DNA of 30,872 nt from a virus (Duplodnaviria; Heunggongvirae; Uroviricota; Caudoviricetes), in IMG/VR virus record IMGVR_UViG_2657245091_000018; one strand, written 5' to 3'. Shown piece by piece: positions 1,551 through 30,872 of the stretch; within the stretch, counting starts at the first letter, position 1; each line of letters starts with the position of its first letter. The translations under genes were made by a program, and so were the position numbers. The notes under the pieces were generated by a model. It was given only the letters and a program-made list of their open reading frames with translations. It made no database searches and was not told the DNA's origin.

Positions 1551-2441
1551 ATGATTCGATCTCTCGTTAAATGGCCCGGTGGTAAAGGCCGCGTTATGCC
1601 TGATTTGCTGCCGATTCTGCCGAAAGCCGATTGCCTGGTGGAACCGTTTGTCGGCGGTGCTTCTGTTTTCCTCAATACTGAATATCGCCGTTATATCCTG
1701 GGTGATATCAACCCAGATTTAATTAACCTGTATCGCCAGATAACCCGCTGGCCTGATGCGGTGATCGACGCTGCTCGCCCACTGTTTAAAGTGTACGGCG
1801 ATAAAGACGGCTATAAGTGGATCCGCGATGATTTCAACGCCCGCGCCCGTGACCTACTGTCATTGCGCAGTGTGTTTGAAGATGGGCCGGACGCGGGCAA
1901 GATTCTTCGTGCAGCACAATTTCTTTACCTGAACCGTCACGGATATAACGGCGTAGTACGCTACAACCAACAGGGTGGATATAACGTTCCCTTTGGGCGT
2001 CACAAAACCCCGCCTTACTTCCCGGAAGAACAAATCCGTTTATTCTCTGAAAAAGCTAACGACACGAAAGCTATTTTCGTGTGCTGCGATTTCCAGAGCA
2101 CGTTAAAAATCATGATTGGTAGTGACGCGGTTATCTATTGCGATCCGCCATACCTGCCAACAAGCGAAACCGCTAATTTCACCCAATACCACACCGCCCC
2201 GTTTGGGATTAAAGAGCATCGCCAGTTAGCTGCCGCTCTGCTGGATATTAACCGCCTTACTGGTTCGCCGGTGATCCTGTCCAATAGCGACACCCCAGCC
2301 ACCTGCGAGATTTATCGCTCTTTCAACTTCCAGGAAATTAGCGTTAACCGTTCTGTCAGCGCGAACGCCATTACCCGAGGGGCCGCCAGTGAGGTGATCG
2401 GTATTCTCAAGGTTGCGACTTCTACGGGCATATGTGAATGA
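1551..2441 (+). CDS. dam: Dam-type DNA N6-adenine methyltransferase (GATC-type, D12 class), phage-encoded orphan
   Basis: Collinear by eye with E. coli Dam: VKWPGGK, CLVEPFVGGASVFLNT (FxGxG AdoMet site), FLYLNRHGYNGVVRYN, YNVPFGRHKTPPYFPEE, IYCDPPYLP (DPPY catalytic motif), ANFTQYHT, ILSNSDT. SD GGAGAAAG lies upstream. Its stop overlaps the next start (ATGA at 2438-2441). Confidence 0.95.
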   Translation: MIRSLVKWPGGKGRVMPDLLPILPKADCLVEPFVGGASVFLNTEYRRYILGDINPDLINLYRQITRWPDAVIDAARPLFKVYGDKDGYKWIRDDFNARARDLLSLRSVFEDGPDAGKILRAAQFLYLNRHGYNGVVRYNQQGGYNVPFGRHKTPPYFPEEQIRLFSEKANDTKAIFVCCDFQSTLKIMIGSDAVIYCDPPYLPTSETANFTQYHTAPFGIKEHRQLAAALLDINRLTGSPVILSNSDTPATCEIYRSFNFQEISVNRSVSANAITRGAASEVIGILKVATSTGICE

Positions 2442-5050
2442 CTAACGCTTTCGCATGGCCTTGGAACGCACCGCGTCCAGCTGTTGGCCCGTACATCTAT
2501 GAACCGAAAAAAATCGCCCCGCTTGCTGGGGCGGTGGCGCATCATCCTGCCGTAAAAAAACATATCGATCACATCTTCAAACGTGCCGGTTACAATCCCG
2601 CCGAAGTTCGTGACCGTGATGCGCTCATCCAGGCGCTGGACAGGTACGAACCATGCGGCCTGCCACTGGCCGCCCATCAAAATATAATCCGGCAAGAAAT
2701 GGAAGCCGCTAAAGCCACGGCGGCAGCCTGGGCCAATACGCCAGAAGGTGTCGAAGCACGTTTATTATCAGAGCCGTTCTTCATTCGTGAAGTCTGGCGT
2801 AAAAAAATTGAGTGGTTACGGGTCAACCGTGAAACCAGACACACCAATGATTTTCTTATGGGGACAGTGAAAAAATCATTGCTGCGTCTTGATGTTGTGC
2901 GCACAAGGCAAGGTGTTTCGCCTGATATCACCGGCGAACTGGCCGCGTACTGGTTCGGGCGCTGGCAACGGCTGGCTGATTTCACAAAGCGGGAAGCACT
3001 AAGCGCCGCTAATGAGATCGCCAGCCGCATGGCTGAAATGCTGGGGACGGAATGCGAAGCCCTGGGACAGAATGTTTCCGACATGAACGTCGAAGAACTG
3101 GACTGGCTTTATTGTCATCTGGGCCGCGAAATGCTGGCGCTTCGCATTGTGCCGCCTGCATGGTATGCGCCGTGGGAACGTGATCGGATATGTACGGCCA
3201 TTTTGCGTATGGCTTCGCCTGACTGGTGGGGGCGCAAAATCTGGCGCCTGCGTTGTGACTGGCGCGAAAACCAGCTGCGAGCCGTTGGCGCGGTAAATAA
3301 AAAAGCGCACGCATACGTTAGCGCTTCCAGCCTGATCGAGTGGCAGGAACAGCGCCGTAAAAACCGGGATTTTTTCAAAAGTCATGAACTGGTAGACGAA
3401 GACGGCAACGTTTCCTCACTTGAGGACATGATTAATAAATCCACGTCAAACCCGGCTATTCGTCGCCATGAGCTTATGGCCCGAATGGCTGGGGTTGAGC
3501 TTGTTGCCCAAAGTCGCGGCGATGTTGGCATCTTCCTGACAATCACTTGCCCGTCGAAATATCACAGTAATATTGCATCCGGCCACCATAACGCCAAATG
3601 GAATCATTCCACCGTCGCCCAGGCGCAGTGCTATTTATGCCGTGTGTGGAACCGGGCAACCGCCAAACTGAAACGCGAAGATTTGCGCCCTTATGGCTTC
3701 CGTGTCGCCGAGCCGCATCACGATGGGACACCACACTGGCACGCGTTGCTGTTTATGCCACAAGAGCAAGTCAAAGCCACGGTTGCGATCCTTCGCACCT
3801 ACTTCATTGCGGAAGACCGCGACGAGCTGGGCCGCAATACCGGCGCTCGTTTCAAGTCAAAAAAAATGGACCCACGGAAAGGGTCAGCAACGGCATACAT
3901 CGCTAAATACATTTCGAAGAATATCGACGGCCACGCGCTGGCCGGTGAACTGGACGACGAAAGCGGCAAGCCGCTGAATGAAAGCGCCAAATATGCAATG
4001 GCCTGGGCATCGCTTCACCGTATCCGCCAGTTTCAGCCCATCGGACAGCCGCCCATATCGGTTTACCGCGAGCTGCGCAAACTTAGTAATCAGATCACGA
4101 CCCGACAGAAAATTGACAGTACCTTCAAACGTGGTGCGCCATTGCTTGTGGATCCTGCAATGGATGCGGTTTGCGCCGCTGCCGATGTCGGATGCTTTGC
4201 TACTTACATCATCCGCCAGGGTGGTGTTTTGATCCCGCGAGAAAACTATGTCGTCCGTCTGGCCTATCAGCCCGCTGATGAAATGAATGCTTATTGTGAG
4301 ATCCCCGAAAAGGTTTTCGGGGTCTGGTCGCCGCGTCTGGGGGATGCCTCCCGTATTTGCACCCGTCTGGTTAAGTGGAAAATTCGAGCCAAATCCAAAA
4401 CCGTCACTGGGGCCAAAAGCGGCCCCGGTTTGGGGGTTGACCTTTTGCCGTCGCCAACCGGCGACGCTTGGAGTTCTGTCAATAACTCTACGGAAGACGA
4501 AAAAATCACCGATTTTTCGCCTGGTGTGGAGGGTATTACAGAAGAATCAGAAGAGGAAATCGTCGATTTTGAAAATATGGACCAGCCAACGCGGCGCAAA
4601 TTGATACGGCGACTACGTGAAGCACCATTCAAAAGGCGGCACAGCGGATCACCTTATGAACCAGGGAGCGAATTAGATGTTGCCTGGCGTTCTGCCGTGG
4701 AAAAAACCGAGGCCAGATCGGTGGCTGATAAAGCCAGGCGGGCAGCGCTTGCCCCTGCGGTTGCCAGTCTGCTGGCTGATGCGGCGTTGTGTTTGGTTGA
4801 GATTTCAGAGATTCAGGCCGTTTCGCTGTTAATGGGGAGCCGTCTGGAGATTGGCGGGAAATTTTATCAAGCCAGTGCTGGCGGCCAGTTGATAACGCGT
4901 CAATTACCTAATGAGTCACGGACGGTGAATAAATTATGGGAACATTTACGGGATAACCACGGCATTGATGCCACGCACCTGCGGTTTGATCCGGTCGGGG
5001 AATATCAAAAAATGCTGGCGGGTGCGGAAGGTCGCTACCCTAAAGAATGA
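2438..5050 (+). CDS. P2 gpA-family replication initiation endonuclease (rolling-circle, HUH class), 870 aa
   Basis: HUH-type metal motif GTPHWHALLF and the paired catalytic tyrosines YIAKY (ATAYIAKYISKNIDG), as in P2 gpA. Size and position (after early ORFs, before the head genes) match the P2 family. Translationally coupled to dam. Confidence 0.9.
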   Translation: MTNAFAWPWNAPRPAVGPYIYEPKKIAPLAGAVAHHPAVKKHIDHIFKRAGYNPAEVRDRDALIQALDRYEPCGLPLAAHQNIIRQEMEAAKATAAAWANTPEGVEARLLSEPFFIREVWRKKIEWLRVNRETRHTNDFLMGTVKKSLLRLDVVRTRQGVSPDITGELAAYWFGRWQRLADFTKREALSAANEIASRMAEMLGTECEALGQNVSDMNVEELDWLYCHLGREMLALRIVPPAWYAPWERDRICTAILRMASPDWWGRKIWRLRCDWRENQLRAVGAVNKKAHAYVSASSLIEWQEQRRKNRDFFKSHELVDEDGNVSSLEDMINKSTSNPAIRRHELMARMAGVELVAQSRGDVGIFLTITCPSKYHSNIASGHHNAKWNHSTVAQAQCYLCRVWNRATAKLKREDLRPYGFRVAEPHHDGTPHWHALLFMPQEQVKATVAILRTYFIAEDRDELGRNTGARFKSKKMDPRKGSATAYIAKYISKNIDGHALAGELDDESGKPLNESAKYAMAWASLHRIRQFQPIGQPPISVYRELRKLSNQITTRQKIDSTFKRGAPLLVDPAMDAVCAAADVGCFATYIIRQGGVLIPRENYVVRLAYQPADEMNAYCEIPEKVFGVWSPRLGDASRICTRLVKWKIRAKSKTVTGAKSGPGLGVDLLPSPTGDAWSSVNNSTEDEKITDFSPGVEGITEESEEEIVDFENMDQPTRRKLIRRLREAPFKRRHSGSPYEPGSELDVAWRSAVEKTEARSVADKARRAALAPAVASLLADAALCLVEISEIQAVSLLMGSRLEIGGKFYQASAGGQLITRQLPNESRTVNKLWEHLRDNHGIDATHLRFDPVGEYQKMLAGAEGRYPKE

Positions 5051-5054
5051 ATTA

Positions 5055-5126
5055 AATCACGCTATCCGTCGCAGCTGGTTGCGTCGGATAGCGTGATTCT
5101 GCGGGGGCGGGCGGCAAAGAGCCCGC
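5055..5126 (+). terminator. Long hairpin plus second GC hairpin just downstream of the replication gene (possible terminator; cos-like G-run, see findings)
   Basis: A perfect 14-bp inverted repeat, AATCACGCTATCCG (5055-5068) / CGGATAGCGTGATT (5085-5098), has an inner extension CGCA/TGCG. It is followed by GCGGGC (5107-5112) - N8 - GCCCGC (5121-5126) and then ATTT. The T-tract is weak, so terminator function is uncertain. Confidence 0.35.
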
Positions 5127-5347
5127 ATTTGAGTTCTGTCAGCGCGATGCCCCTAATCCAATATCTAAATATGCAGTTACGGCATAATGTTAATAGCGGT
5201 CATATTCGGTATGCTCCAGTTAGAAACTACGCTGCGATGTTAAAGATGAGTGATACAAGTGAGTGGGCTAGGCTGTTTGACTCAGCAGAGTAAAGAGGTA
5301 ATCTTGTTTAAGACAAGTTTCAAGATAGAATGATTAATGTTATTTGA

Positions 5348-5383
5348 AGATTTATGTAATACAATATCATTGCAGAGATTTTT
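5348..5383. repeat. Left copy of the imperfect direct repeat bracketing the cargo ORF
   Basis: AGATTTATGTAATACAATATCATTGCAGAGATTTTT. It aligns with 8201-8235 through shared blocks AGATT, ATGTAAT, TATCATTG and AGAGATTT (about 28 identities, one 3-nt indel). It ends 32 nt upstream of the ATG at 5415. Confidence 0.7.
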
Positions 5384-5414
5384 AGATAATTGATAAATCA
5401 TGTTGTCTTATTAA

Positions 5415-8207
5415 ATGTGGGGTCTGATTTTGGAAAGAAAAATTATTTTTAATAATGGTTTTTTAAGTATAAATAGGGAAGTTATAATTATCTTCTTGAT
5501 CTACTTTATTCTGGTCGGGTTGGGTATTTCCGGTGTAATCTACTCTAGATATGTTGATGAAGGGGTAAAGTATTTACTTGTAACACCATCTTTTCTCAAT
5601 AATTCCCCATTGAATTGGACTACTAGTGTTTGGGCGGGAGTTTTAGGCATACATGGAACTATTGCTGCACTATCAATTACATTTATGGGAATGTTTGTTA
5701 GTCAGGTTTCTAATTATTCTGAACATGGCTTTGAAAATATTTGTAAGTCGATGTTGTTGCGGAAAACTAGTTTTTTAAAGTTTAGTTTAAATTCTATTTT
5801 TAGTCTTTTAAGTGGTATCGTATTGCTTTCATGTGGTGGCGGCATGATTACTTATGCTATATCCATTTTTGTATCGTTATACTTTATTTTTAATTATGGT
5901 TCAATGTATCTGAAATTATATAATGTTACTGAGAATCCAACTATAATAACTGATCGTTTATTTTTTGAGCTTGATAAGGCTAAAAATGATTATTTATTGA
6001 TTGACGAACGTAGAAGAACTATAGAAAATAAATTTTTAAACATGATTAATGATTTTGAATATATTCATTATGGGTGGGATTCCGATTTTATCAATAAAGG
6101 ACAACGTAAGTTAAATATTTTCCAAAATAATCAAAATGTCATTATTAATGATTTTTGTCCAATTTGCTTTAAAGAAATTAACAATGAGCTAGAGCGTTTT
6201 TCGAAAGTGGTACGTACTGATTTACGCGTGAATCTTAACTTTATATATCCACTATCAACCTCATCGGTTCATATTGAAGTGCAAGATGGAGCGTCGATCG
6301 ATGAGCTATTAATTAGTAATGTTACAAAACTATTGAAAAAAGGATTGGTGTTCAGTTCAGCTCCTGAAAGCTTCTTGAATTACGGTAAGTATGAAGATGC
6401 AGTAGTTATTAGCTTAAGAAATAGTCTTTTTAGTGGTAATGAGTTAGCGTTAGATTTTAGCATAAGAGCTATCTTCACATTAGTTAGTGAAACTGAATTA
6501 GTTAAAGTAATACATAACCTCAATCACTCTTTTGGTTATACTAACAAAAAAAATAATATAGAGTATTCAATTTTTGCTGCTTTTTATATGAAGGTTAGTT
6601 CTGAAGTGAGTGGGTATAAAAACTATAATATAGTGTGTGATGCTCTTCGATCGATTATGGATTTGGGAAGGTATATTTATGATAATGAGCAATATGATGA
6701 ATTTTATAAATTGATATCACCGTCATTGGAACATCGTGCTCAATATAGTTTAGGTGATCCAGAATATCGTTTTTTTGATTTATATATGTCAACGGTGAGA
6801 GACAACATCTTGTCAAAGAATTATTTGGCATTTAGCCTGAATACTCGATTCTTGACTGAGAAATTTCGTTATCCAGAGTCATCTGATGATGGCGAAACCC
6901 TTAGTATCATTGAGAACAAGATGGTATCGTGTGTAAGACAGGTTATAACTTTACTGATTATTAGGCTGTGCTATTTATCTGAAAAAAGTGATGGGCATCA
7001 GGAGGAATTGAGAATAATAAAACAGAATTTAATGAAATGGTTAGCACCTTCATTCCTAGAAGATCTTTTTTATAAGAGTGGCGTGTATGATGTTATATTT
7101 ACAGTCCCATCTGAACCTGATTTTGATGCAAGTAGAACTTTAAGAGATATACCTGATTATGAGGTTGCAACCTTTTCAATAAATAACGATGCTTTCAAAG
7201 CAGTATCCCTTTTAATGACTCAAACATTATTTAATAAAAACAACTTCAATCCTATTTTTATACGTAATAAAAAAGAGTTTATTAAAAATACAAAAATAAC
7301 AACTCATGAACTGCAATCACTTATATCATATTTGAAAGGTGATGAATTTTCAGCTTTATTAGAGTTGATTAATGAAGGATCTTCTCAAGAAACAAATCGG
7401 ATGGAGGTTGCAGAGCATCTTGAAAGTATAATTTCTGTAAAAAATGAATTAATCGCAAATTCTATTGTTTCTTCTGACCTTGATAAGGTTCTGGTTAATA
7501 AATACATAGATAAAGTATCAATATCATTAGGTGGGTATTTTAATAAATTCGTAGATATTGATTCTATTCCTGTGTCAAATTCAGTTGTCTGCAATCCATT
7601 CTATTCATTGATTAATAAGAGAGAAGTCTTGCAGTCAATTGATAAAGTGCATTATTCAATGAATAGTTCACATCATGCTGAAGTGTTTGTCTATGCTTGG
7701 CTTCATAAAATGCTTGATGGAATTAAAGGCCAATATAAAGATGTAAATGAGATCGAAGATGTAAGTGAACTACCTTCCGATAAGCTTATAACAATTCATT
7801 ACATGGTTAAAGGAGAGGCAAGTGTTTACCGTTACTCAAAAGGTATGAGAATAACAGATTCAAAAGGAGTTTTGGGTTTGGGGTCTCCTGGTCTTTACTA
7901 CATGGATTTTTTGAGCGTATTTTCCTGTCTGCGGAATACTAATTTATTTGATTTGAAAATTGAAAGTATTTCTGATGAGAATATTTCCTTAGTTAAGGGG
8001 TTGTATAATTTCAAGGATGAAAATCCATTGATGTACGCGCTGATGTCTATTAGGATTAATTTGGAATTTATTAATAACGATGGCTTGTCGTTTTATTATA
8101 TTTCTGTAGATAGTTGTAAAAAAATCACTGCATTACATGAACAAAAACTTCGTCTATCTTTTAATGATAAAAAACCAATGGATGATATTGGTGAACTTTC
8201 AGATTAA
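5415..8207 (+). CDS. Large membrane-anchored protein of unknown function (930 aa); candidate hotspot-encoded anti-phage or exclusion protein
   Basis: An uninterrupted 2793-nt ORF in roughly 25-30% GC DNA is unlikely by chance, because stop codons are AT-rich. Hydrophobic helices lie at residues ~23-43, 69-95, 123-140 and 144-163 (nt 5481-5903). They are followed by ~765 aa of soluble N/K/I/S/E-rich sequence. I can recognise no Walker A, HNH/HxH, PD-(D/E)xK, Toprim, TIR or SIR2 signature. The ATG at 5415 directly follows an in-frame TAA and has no clear SD; TTG 5430, downstream of GGGG, is an alternative start. Confidence 0.85.
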   Translation: MWGLILERKIIFNNGFLSINREVIIIFLIYFILVGLGISGVIYSRYVDEGVKYLLVTPSFLNNSPLNWTTSVWAGVLGIHGTIAALSITFMGMFVSQVSNYSEHGFENICKSMLLRKTSFLKFSLNSIFSLLSGIVLLSCGGGMITYAISIFVSLYFIFNYGSMYLKLYNVTENPTIITDRLFFELDKAKNDYLLIDERRRTIENKFLNMINDFEYIHYGWDSDFINKGQRKLNIFQNNQNVIINDFCPICFKEINNELERFSKVVRTDLRVNLNFIYPLSTSSVHIEVQDGASIDELLISNVTKLLKKGLVFSSAPESFLNYGKYEDAVVISLRNSLFSGNELALDFSIRAIFTLVSETELVKVIHNLNHSFGYTNKKNNIEYSIFAAFYMKVSSEVSGYKNYNIVCDALRSIMDLGRYIYDNEQYDEFYKLISPSLEHRAQYSLGDPEYRFFDLYMSTVRDNILSKNYLAFSLNTRFLTEKFRYPESSDDGETLSIIENKMVSCVRQVITLLIIRLCYLSEKSDGHQEELRIIKQNLMKWLAPSFLEDLFYKSGVYDVIFTVPSEPDFDASRTLRDIPDYEVATFSINNDAFKAVSLLMTQTLFNKNNFNPIFIRNKKEFIKNTKITTHELQSLISYLKGDEFSALLELINEGSSQETNRMEVAEHLESIISVKNELIANSIVSSDLDKVLVNKYIDKVSISLGGYFNKFVDIDSIPVSNSVVCNPFYSLINKREVLQSIDKVHYSMNSSHHAEVFVYAWLHKMLDGIKGQYKDVNEIEDVSELPSDKLITIHYMVKGEASVYRYSKGMRITDSKGVLGLGSPGLYYMDFLSVFSCLRNTNLFDLKIESISDENISLVKGLYNFKDENPLMYALMSIRINLEFINNDGLSFYYISVDSCKKITALHEQKLRLSFNDKKPMDDIGELSD

Positions 8208-8235
8208 ATGTAATGTATCATTGTAGAGATTTATT
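8201..8235. repeat. Right copy of the imperfect direct repeat bracketing the cargo ORF
   Basis: AGATTAAATGTAATGTATCATTGTAGAGATTTATT. It includes the last codons and the TAA stop (8205-8207) of the 930-aa ORF. Fragments recur at 8403-8412 (ATGTAATGTA) and 8467-8476 (GATTTATGTA, identical to 5349-5358). Confidence 0.7.
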
Positions 8236-8367
8236 CTTACAGTGTTTGAACGCGTTTATTCACTAAGGATTGTTTCTATGTTGTTTATATAGGATATTGA
8301 TAGTGCGTAAAAGTATGATTTTATAATGTGTAGGCAATGGGCTGGATAGGGCAATCCTTTACTTATT

Positions 8368-8398
8368 TGAAAACCGCCGCAATTTGAATGTGCGGCGG
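8368..8398 (-). terminator. Rho-independent terminator of the terminase-portal-ogr-like leftward operon
   Basis: On the minus strand: CCGCCGCA - 9-nt loop - TGCGGCGG (perfect 8-bp GC-rich stem, 8374-8381 / 8391-8398), followed by TTTTCAAAT. It lies about 70 nt downstream of the stop at 8470. Confidence 0.65.
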
Positions 8399-8469
8399 AG
8401 GGATGTAATGTACATTAGGTGTTCAAAGGATTGATGCTTGCGCCGTACATCTATGTGTAGCAGTGGGAT

Positions 8470-8796
8470 TTATGTAGTTTGCCCACTGAGCAGGTCCAGC
8501 GCGAATTGACGTTCTTCCGGCTTGAGCCGGTCAATCAGGAATTTAACCAGCTTGTTGCCGGTCAGCCCGCTGGGGCTGAGGGTATGTGAAAACTCAACGC
8601 TATAAACAAATGTATGACCACATTCCACTTCTGTGCAGCCACAGTATAAAGACGCCAGTTTTTTATCTTTCCAGTCAGATTTGCGAATGATGGCCGGTGA
8701 GCCGCATTCAGGACATTTAATTTTAAAAACTCGCATGTTCACCATCCCGCACGCCATTGCTAATAATGGGGGGGATTTTAACTTAACTGCGCTCAT
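8470..8796 (-). CDS. Ogr/Delta-type zinc-finger late transcription activator homologue
   Basis: KCPECG...(x22)...CTEVEC gives C-x2-C-x22-C-x4-C, the spacing I recall for P2 Ogr. The long form (108 aa) starts at an ATG overlapping the portal stop (ATGA at 8793-8796). A shorter canonical form, MRVFKIKCPECG, would start at 8736 and is preceded by GGTG. Confidence 0.8.
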   Translation of the reverse strand: MSAVKLKSPPLLAMACGMVNMRVFKIKCPECGSPAIIRKSDWKDKKLASLYCGCTEVECGHTFVYSVEFSHTLSPSGLTGNKLVKFLIDRLKPEERQFALDLLSGQTT

Positions 8797-9854
8797 TTTT
8801 CGCCCTTTTCGGTGGCAATTGCCGGGATATCCACGTCAAAAACCAGGTGCAAGTGTGCGGGGATCTCCGGGTCATTATTGACGCCGTTCATTAGCTTGCG
8901 CTGCAAGGGGATAACTTCATCCTTGCGATAGGTTGTGCGGGCGGTTTCAGGGTTGCCCATTACCGCGCCGTTGGTCGGGATGATACCCGCCAGGCCAGCG
9001 GGGAAACGGTGGGCGGTAAAGATATCCTGCGCGGTTATCCCTTTGATGTTGGCAAATTCATCCTTTGCGCTGACTTCACCCACTGGCATGATTTTAACCC
9101 CTTCCGGGTCGCCCTTCGGGATGTTGATAAACATATTTCGGAAGTTACCCAGCCCTTTGGACTGGGCGATCTTCTCTTTGATTTCATTTTCCATTTCCAG
9201 CGTAAGATTCGGATCGCTGGTATAGAGAATAAAGCCCATATGTGCCCCATTATTGTAGTAACGGCGTCGGAAGATGGTTGCCTCACTGTTGAGTAACACC
9301 GAATGGATGCCGCCGATATAGTCAGGCAGGCCATACACCTGCTGGCGCGGGTCGTACATTTTAAAAAAGACGATGTCTTCCGGTTCATAGATAAGTGCTG
9401 GCCCTTCCTGCAAAACAGCAAACGCCCCGTCTTTTCGGCAGCGCAGATACAGCGACGGCAGCGGCAGCAGGTCGATCACTTCCCCGAATACGTTACGAAT
9501 TTTCAGGATAGCGACGTCACCAAACAGCAGGTAATCAAAGACAGCCTGTTCGACCTGGTCAGGCGTCAGGCCGCCGCCGATGTAGCCACCGGCAACCATA
9601 TTGCGCCGCGCATACAGTACCCCACCGTGCTGGCCGTTAAGGTTCGGCAACTGGGCCAGCGCTAGGCGATCAATCGGGAGTCGCCAGTGGTCATACTCAT
9701 TGTCATACCAGATATTGTGATAATCAGTGCCGGTCGTCAGGATGGGTTCGGGTTCGCCAAATGTGATCACGCTTCCGCGCCCTGGCGTGAAGGATTCAAC
9801 CTTGCTGCCGGTCATGGACCTGAATTTTTTATTATTACGCTGTTTCTTTGTCAT
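8793..9854 (-). CDS. Portal protein (P2 gpQ-like), 353 aa
   Basis: Size and position are those of P2 Q: downstream of the large terminase on the leftward late operon, with an ATGA overlap to the terminase stop at 9851-9854. The protein composition is well formed. Confidence 0.85.
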   Translation of the reverse strand: MTKKQRNNKKFRSMTGSKVESFTPGRGSVITFGEPEPILTTGTDYHNIWYDNEYDHWRLPIDRLALAQLPNLNGQHGGVLYARRNMVAGGYIGGGLTPDQVEQAVFDYLLFGDVAILKIRNVFGEVIDLLPLPSLYLRCRKDGAFAVLQEGPALIYEPEDIVFFKMYDPRQQVYGLPDYIGGIHSVLLNSEATIFRRRYYNNGAHMGFILYTSDPNLTLEMENEIKEKIAQSKGLGNFRNMFINIPKGDPEGVKIMPVGEVSAKDEFANIKGITAQDIFTAHRFPAGLAGIIPTNGAVMGNPETARTTYRKDEVIPLQRKLMNGVNNDPEIPAHLHLVFDVDIPAIATEKGEK

Positions 9855-11662
9855 GCTGCTTTCCCAAAGTACCAGCCCGATGGGCGGTCATATTCGTGAT
9901 CGATAGGTTCGTTAATTACGGCGTGCGAGATAGCGAAGAAAACATCTGCATGGCCGGTCGCGTCTGAACGTTCGGCAACAAACGTCAGCGCGTTGCCGCT
10001 GTTGGTTGTCGTGCGCCGGATAGCCATAAAGCTGGGCGGAATTTCGACGCGCTCTTTGTTCGTTTCGTCTACGGCGTCTTTTGCCCATTCGATGCGCTTA
10101 CGCTCGACAACGTCGATCATCTTCATTACCAGACGGTTTTTGCTTTCGACGCTGTAAAGAATGGGTGTGGCTTCGCGCGGTGCAAACTTGCTGACCAGGT
10201 CATAAACGCCCTTACCAATGCCGGTTGTATCGATCCCGATGTAAGTGATGTTAAAGCGGCGCATAAGCTGCTTTATCTGGTCGGCCTGCCAGCTGAAGTT
10301 AAAGCCCTGCCATTGCCAGACGGCCAGCACGCGGAAGCGCTCGCCGTCCTCTATGGGGGGCGCGATTAACACAAAGGTGGAGTTGTCGCCGGATCGTGAC
10401 GGGTCAAAGCCTGCCCATACTTCGCGATTGCCGAAGGGCCGCGCAGCGGTCAGATCAAAGTCGCCCCATGTGGCCCGGTCCACTTCGCAGCCGACAAGCG
10501 CGGAGAACTTGAACACCGCGTCCTTACTGTCAACAAACTGGCACATGTAGAGCATGGCGAACGCGGTCGGGCTGTATTTGTTGCGCAGCCGTTCAATATC
10601 GACAAGCGCACCGAGGCCACCTTCGATAGCGTCTTCCATCGTTATGATGTAGCGCCAGATCTGGTCCGGGCAGAGAATACCCTGGCGCATTTCGCTTTCT
10701 GTCGGGAACGCCACACCTTTGCGTTTCGGGTCGTCCCCGCGCCAGGCTTCGCCAGTCCATACCGGGTAAGCCTGGTGCGTTTTCGCGCTGGGCGTCGAAA
10801 AGTAGGTCGTCCGGTATTTGTTATGCGTTGCCATTGCGCTGGCAACTTCGTGCAGGCGCGTGAACTTCGGGATCCAGAAAACCTCATCGCCATACAGGTG
10901 GCCGTTAAAGCCCTGCGCGGTGCTGGCGTTCGTGGACAAAAAGCGCAGTATTGCGCCGTTGCTGAGGCGGATATTTTTACCCGTCAGCGTCACGCCGAAA
11001 TGGTTCTGGGCGATCTGGACGATGTATTCACGGAAGATTTCAGACTGGGAGCGGCTTGCAGAGAAAAAGACCTGGTTATCACCGGTAATGACAGCATCTT
11101 CGAATGCCTCCCAGGCGAAATAATAGGTCATGCCGACCTGTCGGCTTTTCAGAATGAAGCGCCAGTCTTCGCCTTTATGTTCGCGGCAGTGCAGCTGGTA
11201 CTCGAAGAGATGTTCCCGCGCCCAGGTGTCGAGCATTTCCGGTGTAATACCGGAAACGTCGTTTTTCTTATACCGGCGCTTTCTTTCCTCTGGTTCCCCG
11301 CCTGCGCTGCTGAGGCAGTACCCTTCACCATCATAAGCCGCTTTCTGGGCCTGAATTTCTGCCAGCTTTTCGGCGTGTTTGTTGCGCTGCGCCATGAGTT
11401 TCACATGGTGAGCAATCAGATCGCGCAGTTCTTCCAGTTCCAGCGCTGTTTTTTTCTCGCGGCGGGAGAGCTGGTCGATACGGCGGGCGATGACATTTTC
11501 CACCGATTCAACAGGCAGCAGTGATGCCCACTTCCCGACATCAGCCCAGTGGTAAATTGTACGCGGTGGAATATTCAGTTCCTGCGCAATATCTTTCGGC
11601 GTCCAGCTTTTCATATAAAGCGTGCGGGCCGCTTCTTTTAATTCATCGGAATATTTAGCCAT
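9851..11662 (-). CDS. Terminase large (ATPase) subunit (P2 gpP-like), 603 aa
   Basis: N-terminal HTH-like segment (WTPKDIAQELNIPPRTIYHW). Terminase Walker-A variant ILKSRQVGMTYYFA. Divergent from the scaffold/capsid operon, as for P2 P/O. Confidence 0.9.
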   Translation of the reverse strand: MAKYSDELKEAARTLYMKSWTPKDIAQELNIPPRTIYHWADVGKWASLLPVESVENVIARRIDQLSRREKKTALELEELRDLIAHHVKLMAQRNKHAEKLAEIQAQKAAYDGEGYCLSSAGGEPEERKRRYKKNDVSGITPEMLDTWAREHLFEYQLHCREHKGEDWRFILKSRQVGMTYYFAWEAFEDAVITGDNQVFFSASRSQSEIFREYIVQIAQNHFGVTLTGKNIRLSNGAILRFLSTNASTAQGFNGHLYGDEVFWIPKFTRLHEVASAMATHNKYRTTYFSTPSAKTHQAYPVWTGEAWRGDDPKRKGVAFPTESEMRQGILCPDQIWRYIITMEDAIEGGLGALVDIERLRNKYSPTAFAMLYMCQFVDSKDAVFKFSALVGCEVDRATWGDFDLTAARPFGNREVWAGFDPSRSGDNSTFVLIAPPIEDGERFRVLAVWQWQGFNFSWQADQIKQLMRRFNITYIGIDTTGIGKGVYDLVSKFAPREATPILYSVESKNRLVMKMIDVVERKRIEWAKDAVDETNKERVEIPPSFMAIRRTTTNSGNALTFVAERSDATGHADVFFAISHAVINEPIDHEYDRPSGWYFGKAA

Positions 11663-29906: not shown

Positions 29907-30872
29907 TTATAGAAGTTTACTTACTGAAATCAGTTTGGGTGATTTAATGCCAATCTCACATAATGTTGTATGATGTGCTTCACGCTCAGTTTCCTGATAA
30001 TAGGTGGCTATCCATTCCGTATTTTCACTAACAATGCTATGTATAAAAGAAAAGTAGGGAACATCTACAGATGATAACGAATGGCCGATGATGATGATTT
30101 CGTCTACGTTGCTGAGATTTTTAAAAAATTTAGCGCTGTCAGCAATGACTTTTTCAGTATTCTTAAAAGAACAAGTGAAGTATTTATTAATAGTCTGCTT
30201 TCCCATTTCATAAGAGTGATCGTAATTATCAGCCATACACTGACGCCACTCTTCAAGTTCTTCATCGGTTGCATTTTCGGGCGGGACTGCTTCCTTTTCT
30301 TCAAAGTTGATAGGGTCAATACCATGACCTAAAATCAACTGTTGATCTGATGATGCTTTTCCATGGATATATAAAATTTGTCTATCATCAATACCATAGT
30401 ATTTCTGAAGAGTCTCAGTATAATTAAAACTGATAAAGATAGAGTCAGAATCGATACGCAATCTTTTATTTAAATTAAGTTCGGGGTAGTTAACCTGCAA
30501 TATAAATGACTTGAATTGTGTTAAAAGCCCTTCGGTTAAATTTTTTAGTATACGTTCCATTTCAATGCTTAATGAGCCCCAGTCCTTGTCACGAAAATCA
30601 GGGCTGCTAATTTGGGGTAAAAGATAGCAAAACTCTTCGAGCACTGACTCTGTATCCAGACCCGCTAAGCTGTTTTCGAAATCAGACCAAAGAAAATGTT
30701 TTGACTTATCAACTGCGGAAAGTTTAGGGGGTAAGTCAGTAAATCCCATAAAATCAACCAAGTGATCGTAAATGTCTTGGTCTTTCTTCCGAAGATAATC
30801 CCCAAATGAGAAATAGCTCGTGTCAAGTTCGTGATGCAGATCAAACCCATTCCCGATGATGTATAGCTTCAT
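29907..30872 (-). CDS. abiH: AbiH-family abortive infection protein, 321 aa
   Basis: The N-terminus MKLYIIGNGFDLHHELDTSYFSFGDYL matches the hallmark IIGNGFDLxHGLxTSYxDF start of the AbiH family (Pfam AbiH, from memory). The gene is AT-rich. Its ATG is the last triplet of the window, so its promoter lies outside. Confidence 0.8.
   Translation of the reverse strand: MKLYIIGNGFDLHHELDTSYFSFGDYLRKKDQDIYDHLVDFMGFTDLPPKLSAVDKSKHFLWSDFENSLAGLDTESVLEEFCYLLPQISSPDFRDKDWGSLSIEMERILKNLTEGLLTQFKSFILQVNYPELNLNKRLRIDSDSIFISFNYTETLQKYYGIDDRQILYIHGKASSDQQLILGHGIDPINFEEKEAVPPENATDEELEEWRQCMADNYDHSYEMGKQTINKYFTCSFKNTEKVIADSAKFFKNLSNVDEIIIIGHSLSSVDVPYFSFIHSIVSENTEWIATYYQETEREAHHTTLCEIGIKSPKLISVSKLL

Follow-up and report, generated by a model that had tools for sequence, protein, structure and literature searches.

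A single-gene cassette in the gpA-to-portal hotspot of a P2-like prophage encodes a four-TM protein of an apparently undescribed family, a candidate for phage defence or exclusion

What does the large AT-rich gene lodged between the replication gene gpA and the portal gene of a P2-like Escherichia coli prophage do, and how did it get there? We analysed a window of 30,872 nucleotides (the whole stretch of IMG/VR record IMGVR_UViG_2657245091_000018), in which one ORF of 2793 nt (5415-8207, + strand, ATG start) encodes a protein of 930 aa and, as stated in a preliminary description of this DNA, fills an AT-rich island. The corresponding RefSeq product, WP_000439987.1, has 925 aa and begins at an alternative TTG start at 5430. 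The GC content of the ORF is 30.8% (GC3 25%), compared to 53.7% for gpA and 53.3% for the remainder of the window; the range of 23-30% given earlier for the island holds for its low end only, whereas the full range in 100-nt windows is 0.20 to 0.40. The cargo gene is real and under constraint (dN/dS 0.106), and the P2-like prophage that carries it is a rare one.

The gpA-to-portal (gpA-gpQ) interval of P2-like phages is a published defence hotspot, occupied by old and tin in P2 (PMC9122126), and the same hotspot is treated by Moura de Sousa et al. 2026 (PMC13586616) and in a preprint. The order of genes in the window, namely, gpA (2438-5050, +; PF05840 Phage_GPA, E=3e-107), the cargo gene, ogr (8470-8796, -) and the portal gene (8793-9854, -), fits this definition, in agreement with the placement proposed earlier. 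The right conserved flank (8470-9854) is recognised by PF04606 and PF04860, and the surrounding phage genes overlap, as had been observed, with 4 nt shared by ogr and portal and another 4 nt by portal and terminase. When related prophages are aligned, as the preliminary description had advised, the flanks are conserved and the slot between them is either empty (L007 and L009) or filled with other cargo. For instance, L010 carries a recognised defence pair, consisting of a GmrSD_N/NsnA/PD-T4-2_A-like gene and a RiboL-PSP HEPN gene, and the slot of L008 encodes a protein of 571 aa whose match to HEPN_Apea is weak and falls below the cutoff. The portals are 88-92% identical in L007, L008 and L010, and gpA is 72-82% identical to those of L007-L011. 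These comparisons indicate that the content of the slot varies among the closest relatives with conserved flanks, and that the cargo gene is not a core gene present in all of them. The cargo resembles that of the P2 hotspot (old/tin) in occupying the same position, in being different or absent in relatives, in its exchange between backbones and in forming an AT-rich, stand-alone unit. By contrast, ogr here sits between the cargo and the portal, and the cargo protein resembles neither Old nor Tin nor any PADLOC family in sequence or fold.

Homology to the empty-site relative L007 stops at 5126 and resumes at 8468-8478, where it also resumes for L008 and L010. The comparison with L007 places the variable segment at 5127-8468, a somewhat larger interval than the 5290-8469 previously assigned to the island. 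The intergenic flanks have the lengths reported before, 364 nt (5051-5414) and 262 nt (8208-8469), but are not empty. The stop codon of gpA is followed by two hairpins (5055-5126, +), the last segment shared with L007, one with 19-nt arms forming a 95% complementary inverted repeat (5055-5098) and the other with a GC-rich stem resembling a terminator (5107-5126). Beyond them, at about 5165-5293 (+), lies a pseudogene fragment corresponding to the C-terminus of a donor gpA; the 66-aa ORF at 5093-5293 was rejected as a gene, being this gpA-tail relic. The AT-rich leader (5294-5414, +; 22-23% GC in 100-nt windows) presumably contains the promoter and 5'UTR; a promoter scan of the window found no consensus sigma-70 site upstream of the cargo gene. 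On the opposite side, an AT-rich trailer (8208-8369, +) is followed by the terminator hairpin of ogr (8370-8398, -), read from the sequence as an 8-bp GC stem and TTTT. A direct repeat of 25-28 nt brackets the ORF, with one copy in the leader (5354-5381) and one in the trailer (8208-8232). It was discarded as a cassette-type repeat, given that it exceeds shuffled sequence by a small margin only and that six homologous loci lack it.

Aligned with the gpA tail of L002, the relic yields a BLOSUM62 local score of 124, compared to a shuffle maximum of 44 (n=300), and positions 5171-5257 share 76% DNA identity with L002 9233-9319. As this relic shows, the cassette was passed on directly by another P2-like phage. 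The left crossover lies in the 3' end of gpA, with a piece of the donor gene carried along, and the relic marks the left scar of a cassette swapped between P2-like phages. Cargo and backbone similarities are discordant across loci, and this discordance, together with the donor gpA-tail scar, shows horizontal transfer of the cargo gene between P2-like phages. As a case in point, the scar is a concrete example of cassette movement between phages at the P2 hotspot. The earlier proposal of acquisition from a low-GC donor is unsupported, because low GC is a property of the whole family: the enterobacterial members all have 29-32% GC, despite divergence to 31-58% identity, and a recent import from such a donor was rejected on this ground.

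The family is small, with about 50 clusters, and almost wholly confined to Enterobacterales, with hosts including Serratia, Klebsiella, Rahnella, Cedecea, Morganella and Cronobacter. At 30 of 40 other loci (a count that is not de-replicated), gpA or a gpA fragment lies directly upstream, and these loci have P2-like backbones with portals 48-99% identical to that of L004. No homologue was found in sequenced phages (DNA and tblastn searches) or plasmids. Other copies reside in different defence contexts: P0070 lies between the Ogr/Delta and integrase genes of a P4-like satellite, the P4 defence hotspot; P0086 is located about 100 bp downstream of an hsdM-hsdS-hsdR operon (type I R-M), with an integrase gene on the other side; and P0089 adjoins a ScoMcrA-SBD/HNH gene (McrA-like). 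Homologues have also been retained in prophages reduced to remnants and as lone copies in the chromosome, some of these lone copies in core contexts at cueR-copA, clpA-proximal and icd-proximal sites. About one quarter of the loci are without recognisable defence or mobile context. No conserved partner gene was found at the homologous loci, the upstream ORFs considered for this role being gpA fragments or locus-specific.

Searches with the 930-aa protein against Pfam and NCBIfam returned no match, as did a PDB sequence profile search, PADLOC-DB v2.0.0 yielded 0 families at E<=1, and the only PHROGs matches were to two families, both of unknown function. These results accord with the initial view of a single-gene cargo outside the described families. 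When 49 family members were compared with Pfam at E<=10, the matches amounted to scattered noise, with no family matching more than three members. A possible link to DUF2254 (PF10011), raised at the outset, was not borne out, since this family gave no match to the cargo protein at E<=1 and is absent among the 25 most frequent families listed for the 49 members at E<=10. There was no Pfam or PADLOC match to Old (ATPase + Toprim) or Tin, nor to KwaA or KwaB (DUF4868), and no homology to a structural, replication or housekeeping protein was found. This outcome and the non-core status of the gene, both named beforehand as possible refutations, favour the preliminary interpretation. Neither the accession nor the protein was found in the literature searched, and the protein was not found in the portion covered of the supplements of Rousset 2022. 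The newly named P4 systems Crouga, Bandua, Aernus, Toga, Reve and Hailong were considered and set aside, as their architecture differs. Judged from its sequence, the cargo protein appears to belong to no described family.

Further insight comes from an AlphaFold model of the protein (pLDDT 85). Hydropathy, the model and conservation delineate a four-TM membrane module at residues 14-173 (5454-5933, +), in which the hydropathy peaks (residues 24-42, 76-94, 120-139 and 141-160) agree with the modelled helices (14-46, 68-99, 120-139 and 144-173), corroborating the four N-terminal hydrophobic helices noted previously. This module is the most conserved part of the protein (dN/dS 0.049 for residues 61-175). 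TM2 (LGIHGTIAALSITFMGMFV.QVS) is nearly invariant across the family, its otherwise invariant histidine being missing in the most distant relatives, and strong conservation extends to the periplasmic TM1-TM2 loop (P58, S59, W68, W73). It is followed by a stalk helix (176-211) and a small alpha/beta domain (217-315), defined by the model and conservation (5940-6362, +), which together constitute the least conserved region (dN/dS 0.157), a candidate for the specificity or sensor region. The remainder comprises a HEAT/ARM-like alpha-solenoid (318-716; 6366-7562, +) and a C-terminal beta-rich domain (717-916; 7563-8162, +), in which K735-R736-E737 is invariant, D743 is conserved and a K-R...DGVH motif persists in the most distant relatives too. 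The model thus predicts a distinctive layout, in which the four TM helices are combined with an alpha-solenoid and a beta domain. The 765-aa cytoplasmic portion is constrained throughout (dN/dS 0.09-0.16). As the preliminary description had suspected, there is no defensible catalytic motif: 49 family members share no Walker A, HExxH or comparable motif, and a CxxC, present in 15 of the 49, was rejected as a metal site for lack of conservation. Likewise, no enzyme fold was found in the rest of the protein, which has no recognisable nucleotide-signalling domain.

The cargo gene probably encodes a membrane-anchored protein of an undescribed family that acts on its own in anti-phage defence or in exclusion. 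This role is suggested by its position in the hotspot, the variable slot, the recurrence and transfer of the gene, the defence contexts of homologues, their retention in decayed prophages, the second AT-rich island of the same prophage, which encodes AbiH and serves as an internal calibration, and the prior provided by P4 hotspots, where protection was observed for six of eight randomly chosen loci whose function was unknown (PMC13586616). Alternatively, the gene might have no anti-phage role. It would then be a moron conferring some other advantage (in membrane or stress physiology, or in interaction with the host), or a factor for counter-defence or for the life cycle of the phage that shares the hotspot by chance; we consider this distinctly unlikely. 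According to Table S5A, hotspot cargo includes non-defence genes, such as DinI and StbA, and PADLOC has no model matching the protein; both observations speak against a defence reading, as do the absence of an upstream consensus promoter, the loci without recognisable defence or mobile context and the loss of the TM2 histidine in the most distant relatives. Consistent with a different benefit are also the solitary homologues in the core chromosome and the start of the gene only 56-140 nt past gpA at several homologous loci, a spacing that makes co-transcription with early lytic genes, rather than lysogen expression, possible, so that at these loci the cargo gene may be part of the early lytic transcript. 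However, retention under strong constraint after phage decay argues against a life-cycle role, the many lifestyles of the hosts argue against a role in virulence, and the P4 hotspot, R-M and McrA-like neighbours would be an unlikely coincidence.

How might such a protein act? In the RexAB system of lambda, the four-TM ion channel RexB is activated by the cytoplasmic sensor RexA. Like RexB, the cargo protein is prophage-borne, and its four-TM module matches RexB in loop spacing and approximately in size; an LYNxT motif immediately past TM4 and the alignment of the four hydrophobic blocks add to the likeness. The hhalign comparison of TM2-TM4 with RexB is colinear and weak (probability 7-21%, E 0.001-0.005), its score being reached by 1 of 250 and 3 of 300 hydropathy-preserving block shuffles. 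The coincidence of conserved residues was discarded as support for homology, because it falls within the null (84/250), and the Pfam RexB family (PF15968) is absent among the matches listed for the 49 members at E<=10. The similarity of the module to RexB is thus weak, unproven and below any accepted threshold. The cytoplasmic part shows no similarity to RexA (hhalign probability 0.1%), and, in contrast to the two proteins of RexAB, the cargo is one 930-aa polypeptide with no RexA-like partner nearby; the proposed parallel is the coupling of a cytoplasmic sensor to a membrane effector.

Given that the membrane module is the most conserved and constrained part, that no enzyme fold occurs elsewhere and that the RexB match is colinear, the module may be the effector. 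The cytoplasmic part, consisting of the variable alpha/beta domain, the alpha-solenoid and the C-terminal beta domain and devoid of a catalytic fold, would bind a phage-derived trigger, and the signal would travel via the long stalk helix to the conserved four-TM bundle, which would permeabilise or depolarise the inner membrane, resulting in a Rex-like abortive infection from a single polypeptide. We regard this sensor-to-effector direction and the depolarisation mechanism as a tentative possibility. In the opposite arrangement, the four-TM module would sense attachment, DNA injection or membrane perturbation, whereas the solenoid and C-terminal domain would bind or sequester phage DNA or proteins, without membrane collapse. 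A precedent is Kiwa, in which a tetramer of four-TM KwaA senses membrane changes and cytoplasmic KwaB acts (PMC11785009), so that a four-TM component is likewise coupled to a non-enzymatic cytoplasmic one. The conserved periplasmic TM1-TM2 loop and the nature of alpha-solenoids as binding scaffolds are compatible with this polarity, to which all the contextual evidence for defence applies equally. Nevertheless, it seems unlikely: no PADLOC family, any KwaA/KwaB models included, matches the protein, and the fastest-evolving part is cytoplasmic, which fits a phage-contacting sensor rather than an effector. The cargo also differs from Kiwa in being a single fused gene with an alpha-solenoid and a beta domain as its cytoplasmic folds. 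Hydrolase-3TM, RT-nitrilase-TM and 2TM-1TM-TIR, found in the same P2/P4 hotspots, include TM proteins presumed to be suicide effectors (PMC9122126), but in those systems a small TM protein is joined by an enzymatic or signalling partner; for the cargo protein, neither a recognisable enzymatic or nucleotide-signalling domain nor a conserved partner gene was found.

Quite improbable, in our assessment, is constitutive superinfection exclusion, by which genome entry would be blocked at the inner membrane without sensing or cell death, for example, through occupation or alteration of a host membrane component required for DNA translocation. SieB-type cargo does occur in the P2 hotspot tables. The protein is a prophage-borne inner-membrane protein, and the extreme conservation of its TM segments might stem from interaction with a host membrane protein that is itself conserved. 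Known Sie proteins, however, are small, the constrained cytoplasmic portion of the cargo protein is hard to square with a passive block, and the type I R-M and P4 satellite neighbourhoods point to defence in general, not to exclusion specific to prophages.

At its most speculative, the sensor-to-membrane-effector reading would make the cargo a one-polypeptide Rex-type immune protein, in which a RexB-related four-TM channel is fused to a large, non-enzymatic sensor whose C-terminal domain, a diverged HK97-type capsid-like fold, would engage phage head-assembly or packaging components; binding of the trigger would open the channel and abort the infection. This scenario is quite improbable, but, if true, it would provide the first distant relatives of RexB beyond lambdoid phages and a tractable single-gene model for Rex-like channel gating, and a true RexB link would be relevant to how Rex exclusion works, a question of long standing. 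More generally, if the cargo gene is protective, it would represent a new single-gene defence family missed by current annotation tools, and, being small, nearly exclusive to Enterobacterales and easily tested in E. coli, this family would be a convenient model for the coupling of a sensor to the membrane.

The single AT-rich ORF of the preliminary description was recovered at the same coordinates (5415-8207, +; 930 aa) and with the same non-coding flanks of 364 nt and 262 nt, whereas the late genes overlap each other by 4 nt. RefSeq carries this frame from a TTG start at 5430 as a hypothetical protein (WP_000439987.1). The GC content of this cargo gene is 30.8% (GC3 25%), compared to 53.7% for gpA and 53.3% for the rest of the window. 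Upstream lies gpA (2438-5050, +; Pfam PF05840, E=3e-107), and downstream, on the minus strand, the Pfam-confirmed ogr (8470-8796), portal (8793-9854) and terminase (9851-11662) genes. Directly 3' of gpA, positions 5055-5126 contain a hairpin with 19-bp arms and a GC-rich element (TGCGGGGGCGGGCGGCAAAGAGCCCGC); both are conserved in L007, a relative whose site is empty, and may together represent the terminator of the early operon. The GC-rich part may resemble the cos ends of P2 and 186; if it is indeed cos, the cargo gene would lie between cos and the portal gene, a location that differs from that of old and tin in P2. The ORF is flanked by the two copies of an imperfect direct repeat (5354-5381, ATGTAATACAATATCATTGCAGAGATTT; 8208-8232, ATGTAAT---GTATCATTGTAGAGATTT). 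Its local score is 31, where 200 shuffles reached at most 30; six homologous loci showed no counterpart, and the repeat may be fortuitous or a locus-specific recombination remnant.

The cos-proximal gpA-gpQ interval is the hotspot of P2 (Rousset et al., PMC9122126) and has been confirmed as its main defence locus (Moura de Sousa et al., PMC13586616). Among complete E. coli genomes, the flanks of the slot match only the 19 genomes that carry the cargo gene, and more distant relatives were therefore compared, namely, the five whose gpA is most similar (72-82% identity), four of which span the interval. The portal proteins of L007, L008 and L010 are 88-92% identical to that of the window. As the preliminary description had anticipated, the slot is variable between conserved flanks: it is empty in Enterobacter L007 (gpA-ogr interval of about 250-330 nt) and Buttiauxella L009 (about 80 nt), and holds other cargo in two genomes. 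Buttiauxella L010 (12691-14746, -) encodes a GmrSD_N/DUF262 protein (PADLOC NsnA 9e-76, PD-T4-2_A 5e-46) and a RiboL-PSP HEPN protein, and Kluyvera L008 (12604-14319, -) encodes one 571-aa protein, itself another uncharacterised cargo candidate, with a weak, below-cutoff match to HEPN_Apea and no PADLOC match. DNA homology with L007 ends at 5126 and restarts at 8469, which delimits the variable segment to 5127-8468.

The cargo family is a recurrent occupant of this hotspot and moves between phages. In other P2-like prophages, from E. coli, Enterobacter and Serratia, homologues with 58%, 37% and 31% identity immediately follow gpA and precede the portal gene, and all 12 IMG/VR contigs and 13 of the 17 metagenome loci have this arrangement, intact or decayed. 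Overall, gpA or a fragment thereof precedes the cargo homologue in 30 of 40 loci (not de-replicated). Similarities of cargo and backbone are discordant: relative to L004, the L025 portal is 97% identical and the cargo 42%, whereas the corresponding values for L029 are 57% and 79%. The stretch at ~5165-5293 (+), a formerly unexplained 66-aa ORF that we reject as a gene, encodes a second gpA C-terminus, a recombination scar from cassette exchange. The relic most closely resembles the gpA tail of the E. coli prophage L002, which carries the nearest homologue of the cargo gene (BLOSUM score 124 versus a shuffle maximum of 44; 76% DNA identity over 87 nt). A gpA C-terminal relic (L003 9580-9861) also lies upstream of a Citrobacter 'orphan' copy after clpA, and L015 retains an internal gpA fragment (5974-6945). 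Between gpA and the cargo homologue, L002 further encodes a 183-aa protein with a zinc-ribbon-like CxxC...CxxC pattern (9365-9916, +), present in this prophage only, with no PADLOC match and no counterpart elsewhere. Acquisition from a low-GC donor, as initially proposed, is not supported: all enterobacterial family members have 29-32% GC against 46-55% in their flanks, indicating that low GC is a stable family trait rather than a mark of recent import. The distant relatives have the same GC content as their surroundings.

The cargo ORF is a real, constrained gene of a narrow, undescribed family, with an overall dN/dS of 0.106 across eight members (77-84% identity). Searches of Pfam, NCBIfam and PADLOC with the protein, some of them suggested in the preliminary description, returned no match, leaving the DUF2254 link raised there unsupported by Pfam, and PHROGs yielded two families, both of unknown function. 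A word-indexed search retrieved 53 clusters, all labelled hypothetical and none with a Pfam domain, the named ones being exclusively from Enterobacterales (~910-935 aa). When 1.84 billion cluster representatives were searched in full with an HMM, only 46 matches emerged, including a few very distant full-length relatives (P0070, P0071, P0086 and P0089). No homologue was found in sequenced phages or plasmids. The gene is rare in E. coli: 19 of 5,426 complete genomes have it, invariably within this prophage adjoining yegR/yegS, in copies that share at least 99.8% identity. It is intact in all of them, possibly bar one, where RefSeq has two hypothetical proteins under the match. An IS3-family transposase gene occupies the early region of the prophage in the reference genome (L001 13887-15100), the window starting inside or just after it; given this insertion, that prophage may be defective.

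Hydropathy and an AlphaFold model agree on the four N-terminal transmembrane (TM) helices noticed from the sequence, placing them within residues 14-173. By the positive-inside rule, both termini, and hence the 765-aa soluble part, are likely cytoplasmic. The model, built from a 49-sequence alignment, is confident (pLDDT 85, pTM 0.66). In it, TM1-TM4 lead into a long stalk helix (residues 176-211) and then a small alpha/beta domain (217-315); residues 318-716 are helical, and the protein ends with a beta-rich C-terminal domain (729-897) and a final helix. Conservation and constraint are highest in TM2-TM4 and their loops (dN/dS 0.049), and the stalk and alpha/beta region is the least conserved (0.157). 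TM2, rich in small and polar residues, contains a motif (LGIHGTIAALSITFMGMFV.QVS) nearly invariant among proteins with overall identity of just 23-58%. No enzyme fold was detected anywhere in the protein and, consistent with the first reading, 49 members have no conserved catalytic motif, be it Walker A, HExxH or another; the CxxC is present in only 15 of them. Because the TM module is the most constrained part and no enzyme fold is seen elsewhere, the most economical interpretation would make the membrane module the effector and the cytoplasmic part the sensor. The opposite, Kiwa-like arrangement would pair a membrane sensor with a cytoplasmic effector.

Lambda Rex is the obvious analogue. 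RexA has no similarity to the cargo protein. The RexB profile is colinear with TM2-TM4 over 97 columns (HH probability 7%, E 0.005), and the two share an LYNxT motif just after TM4, where the alignment ends. Against a TM-only sub-alignment, RexB scored 27.6 (HH probability 21%, E 0.001), a value reached by 3 of 300 and 1 of 250 shuffles preserving the hydropathy layout; the reversed profile scored 11.4. The count of coinciding conserved residues did not exceed the shuffle null (84/250), and the Pfam RexB model did not match the cargo family. From these sequence comparisons, the possible link to RexB is a lead at roughly P=0.01, not a result. NCBI gives several RexB (PF15968) homologues (P0093, P0098, P0100 and P0111) the name 'biopolymer transporter ExbB', a hint that annotators perceive a similarity between RexB and ExbB; this bears on the idea that these four-TM modules are ion-conducting.

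Other contexts of the family are of the defence type. P0070, distant from the cargo protein yet retaining the TM2 motif, is flanked by the Ogr/Delta and integrase genes of a P4-like satellite, the interval published as the P4 defence hotspot (PMC9122126). P0086 (Ca. Thiodiazotropha) is ~100 nt downstream of a type I R-M operon on the same strand, with an integrase gene on its other side, and P0089 adjoins a ScoMcrA-SBD/HNH gene. In the R-M operon (L016 1785-9903), a 301-aa ORF without Pfam or PADLOC matches lies between two hsdM-like genes. The cargo gene also persists in decayed prophage remnants (in Serratia, with the order integrase gene, gpA fragment, cargo, gpD, ogr), and solitary copies adjoin icd, clpA or cueR/copA or reside in a CP4-type island; the family has no conserved partner gene. 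At the far end of the same prophage, a second AT-rich island (29907-30872, -; about 35% GC) encodes a 321-aa abortive-infection protein, AbiH (Pfam PF14253, E=2.4e-60; PADLOC AbiH, E=2.1e-29), whose ORF begins within the window's last bases. In the P4 hotspot, six of eight randomly picked loci of unknown function were protective, and none of the systems named in that study has the architecture of the cargo protein (PMC13586616).

Several independent lines of context thus support the view, already taken in the preliminary description, that this gene is hotspot cargo and an undescribed candidate defence gene. A role in defence is the probable function, and the specific model of Rex-like depolarisation is a tentative one. 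The competing explanations are the Kiwa-like arrangement, passive superinfection exclusion and a non-defence moron. No consensus promoter was found upstream of the gene in the window. The distance from gpA to the start of the gene is 56-140 nt in several phages, which would allow co-transcription with the early genes, a caveat to all defence readings. The novelty would be architectural, that of a variant among the hotspot-borne, membrane-linked defence genes already known; the category will not surprise a specialist, but the candidate is well delimited and readily testable, and its possible connection to RexB is of interest.
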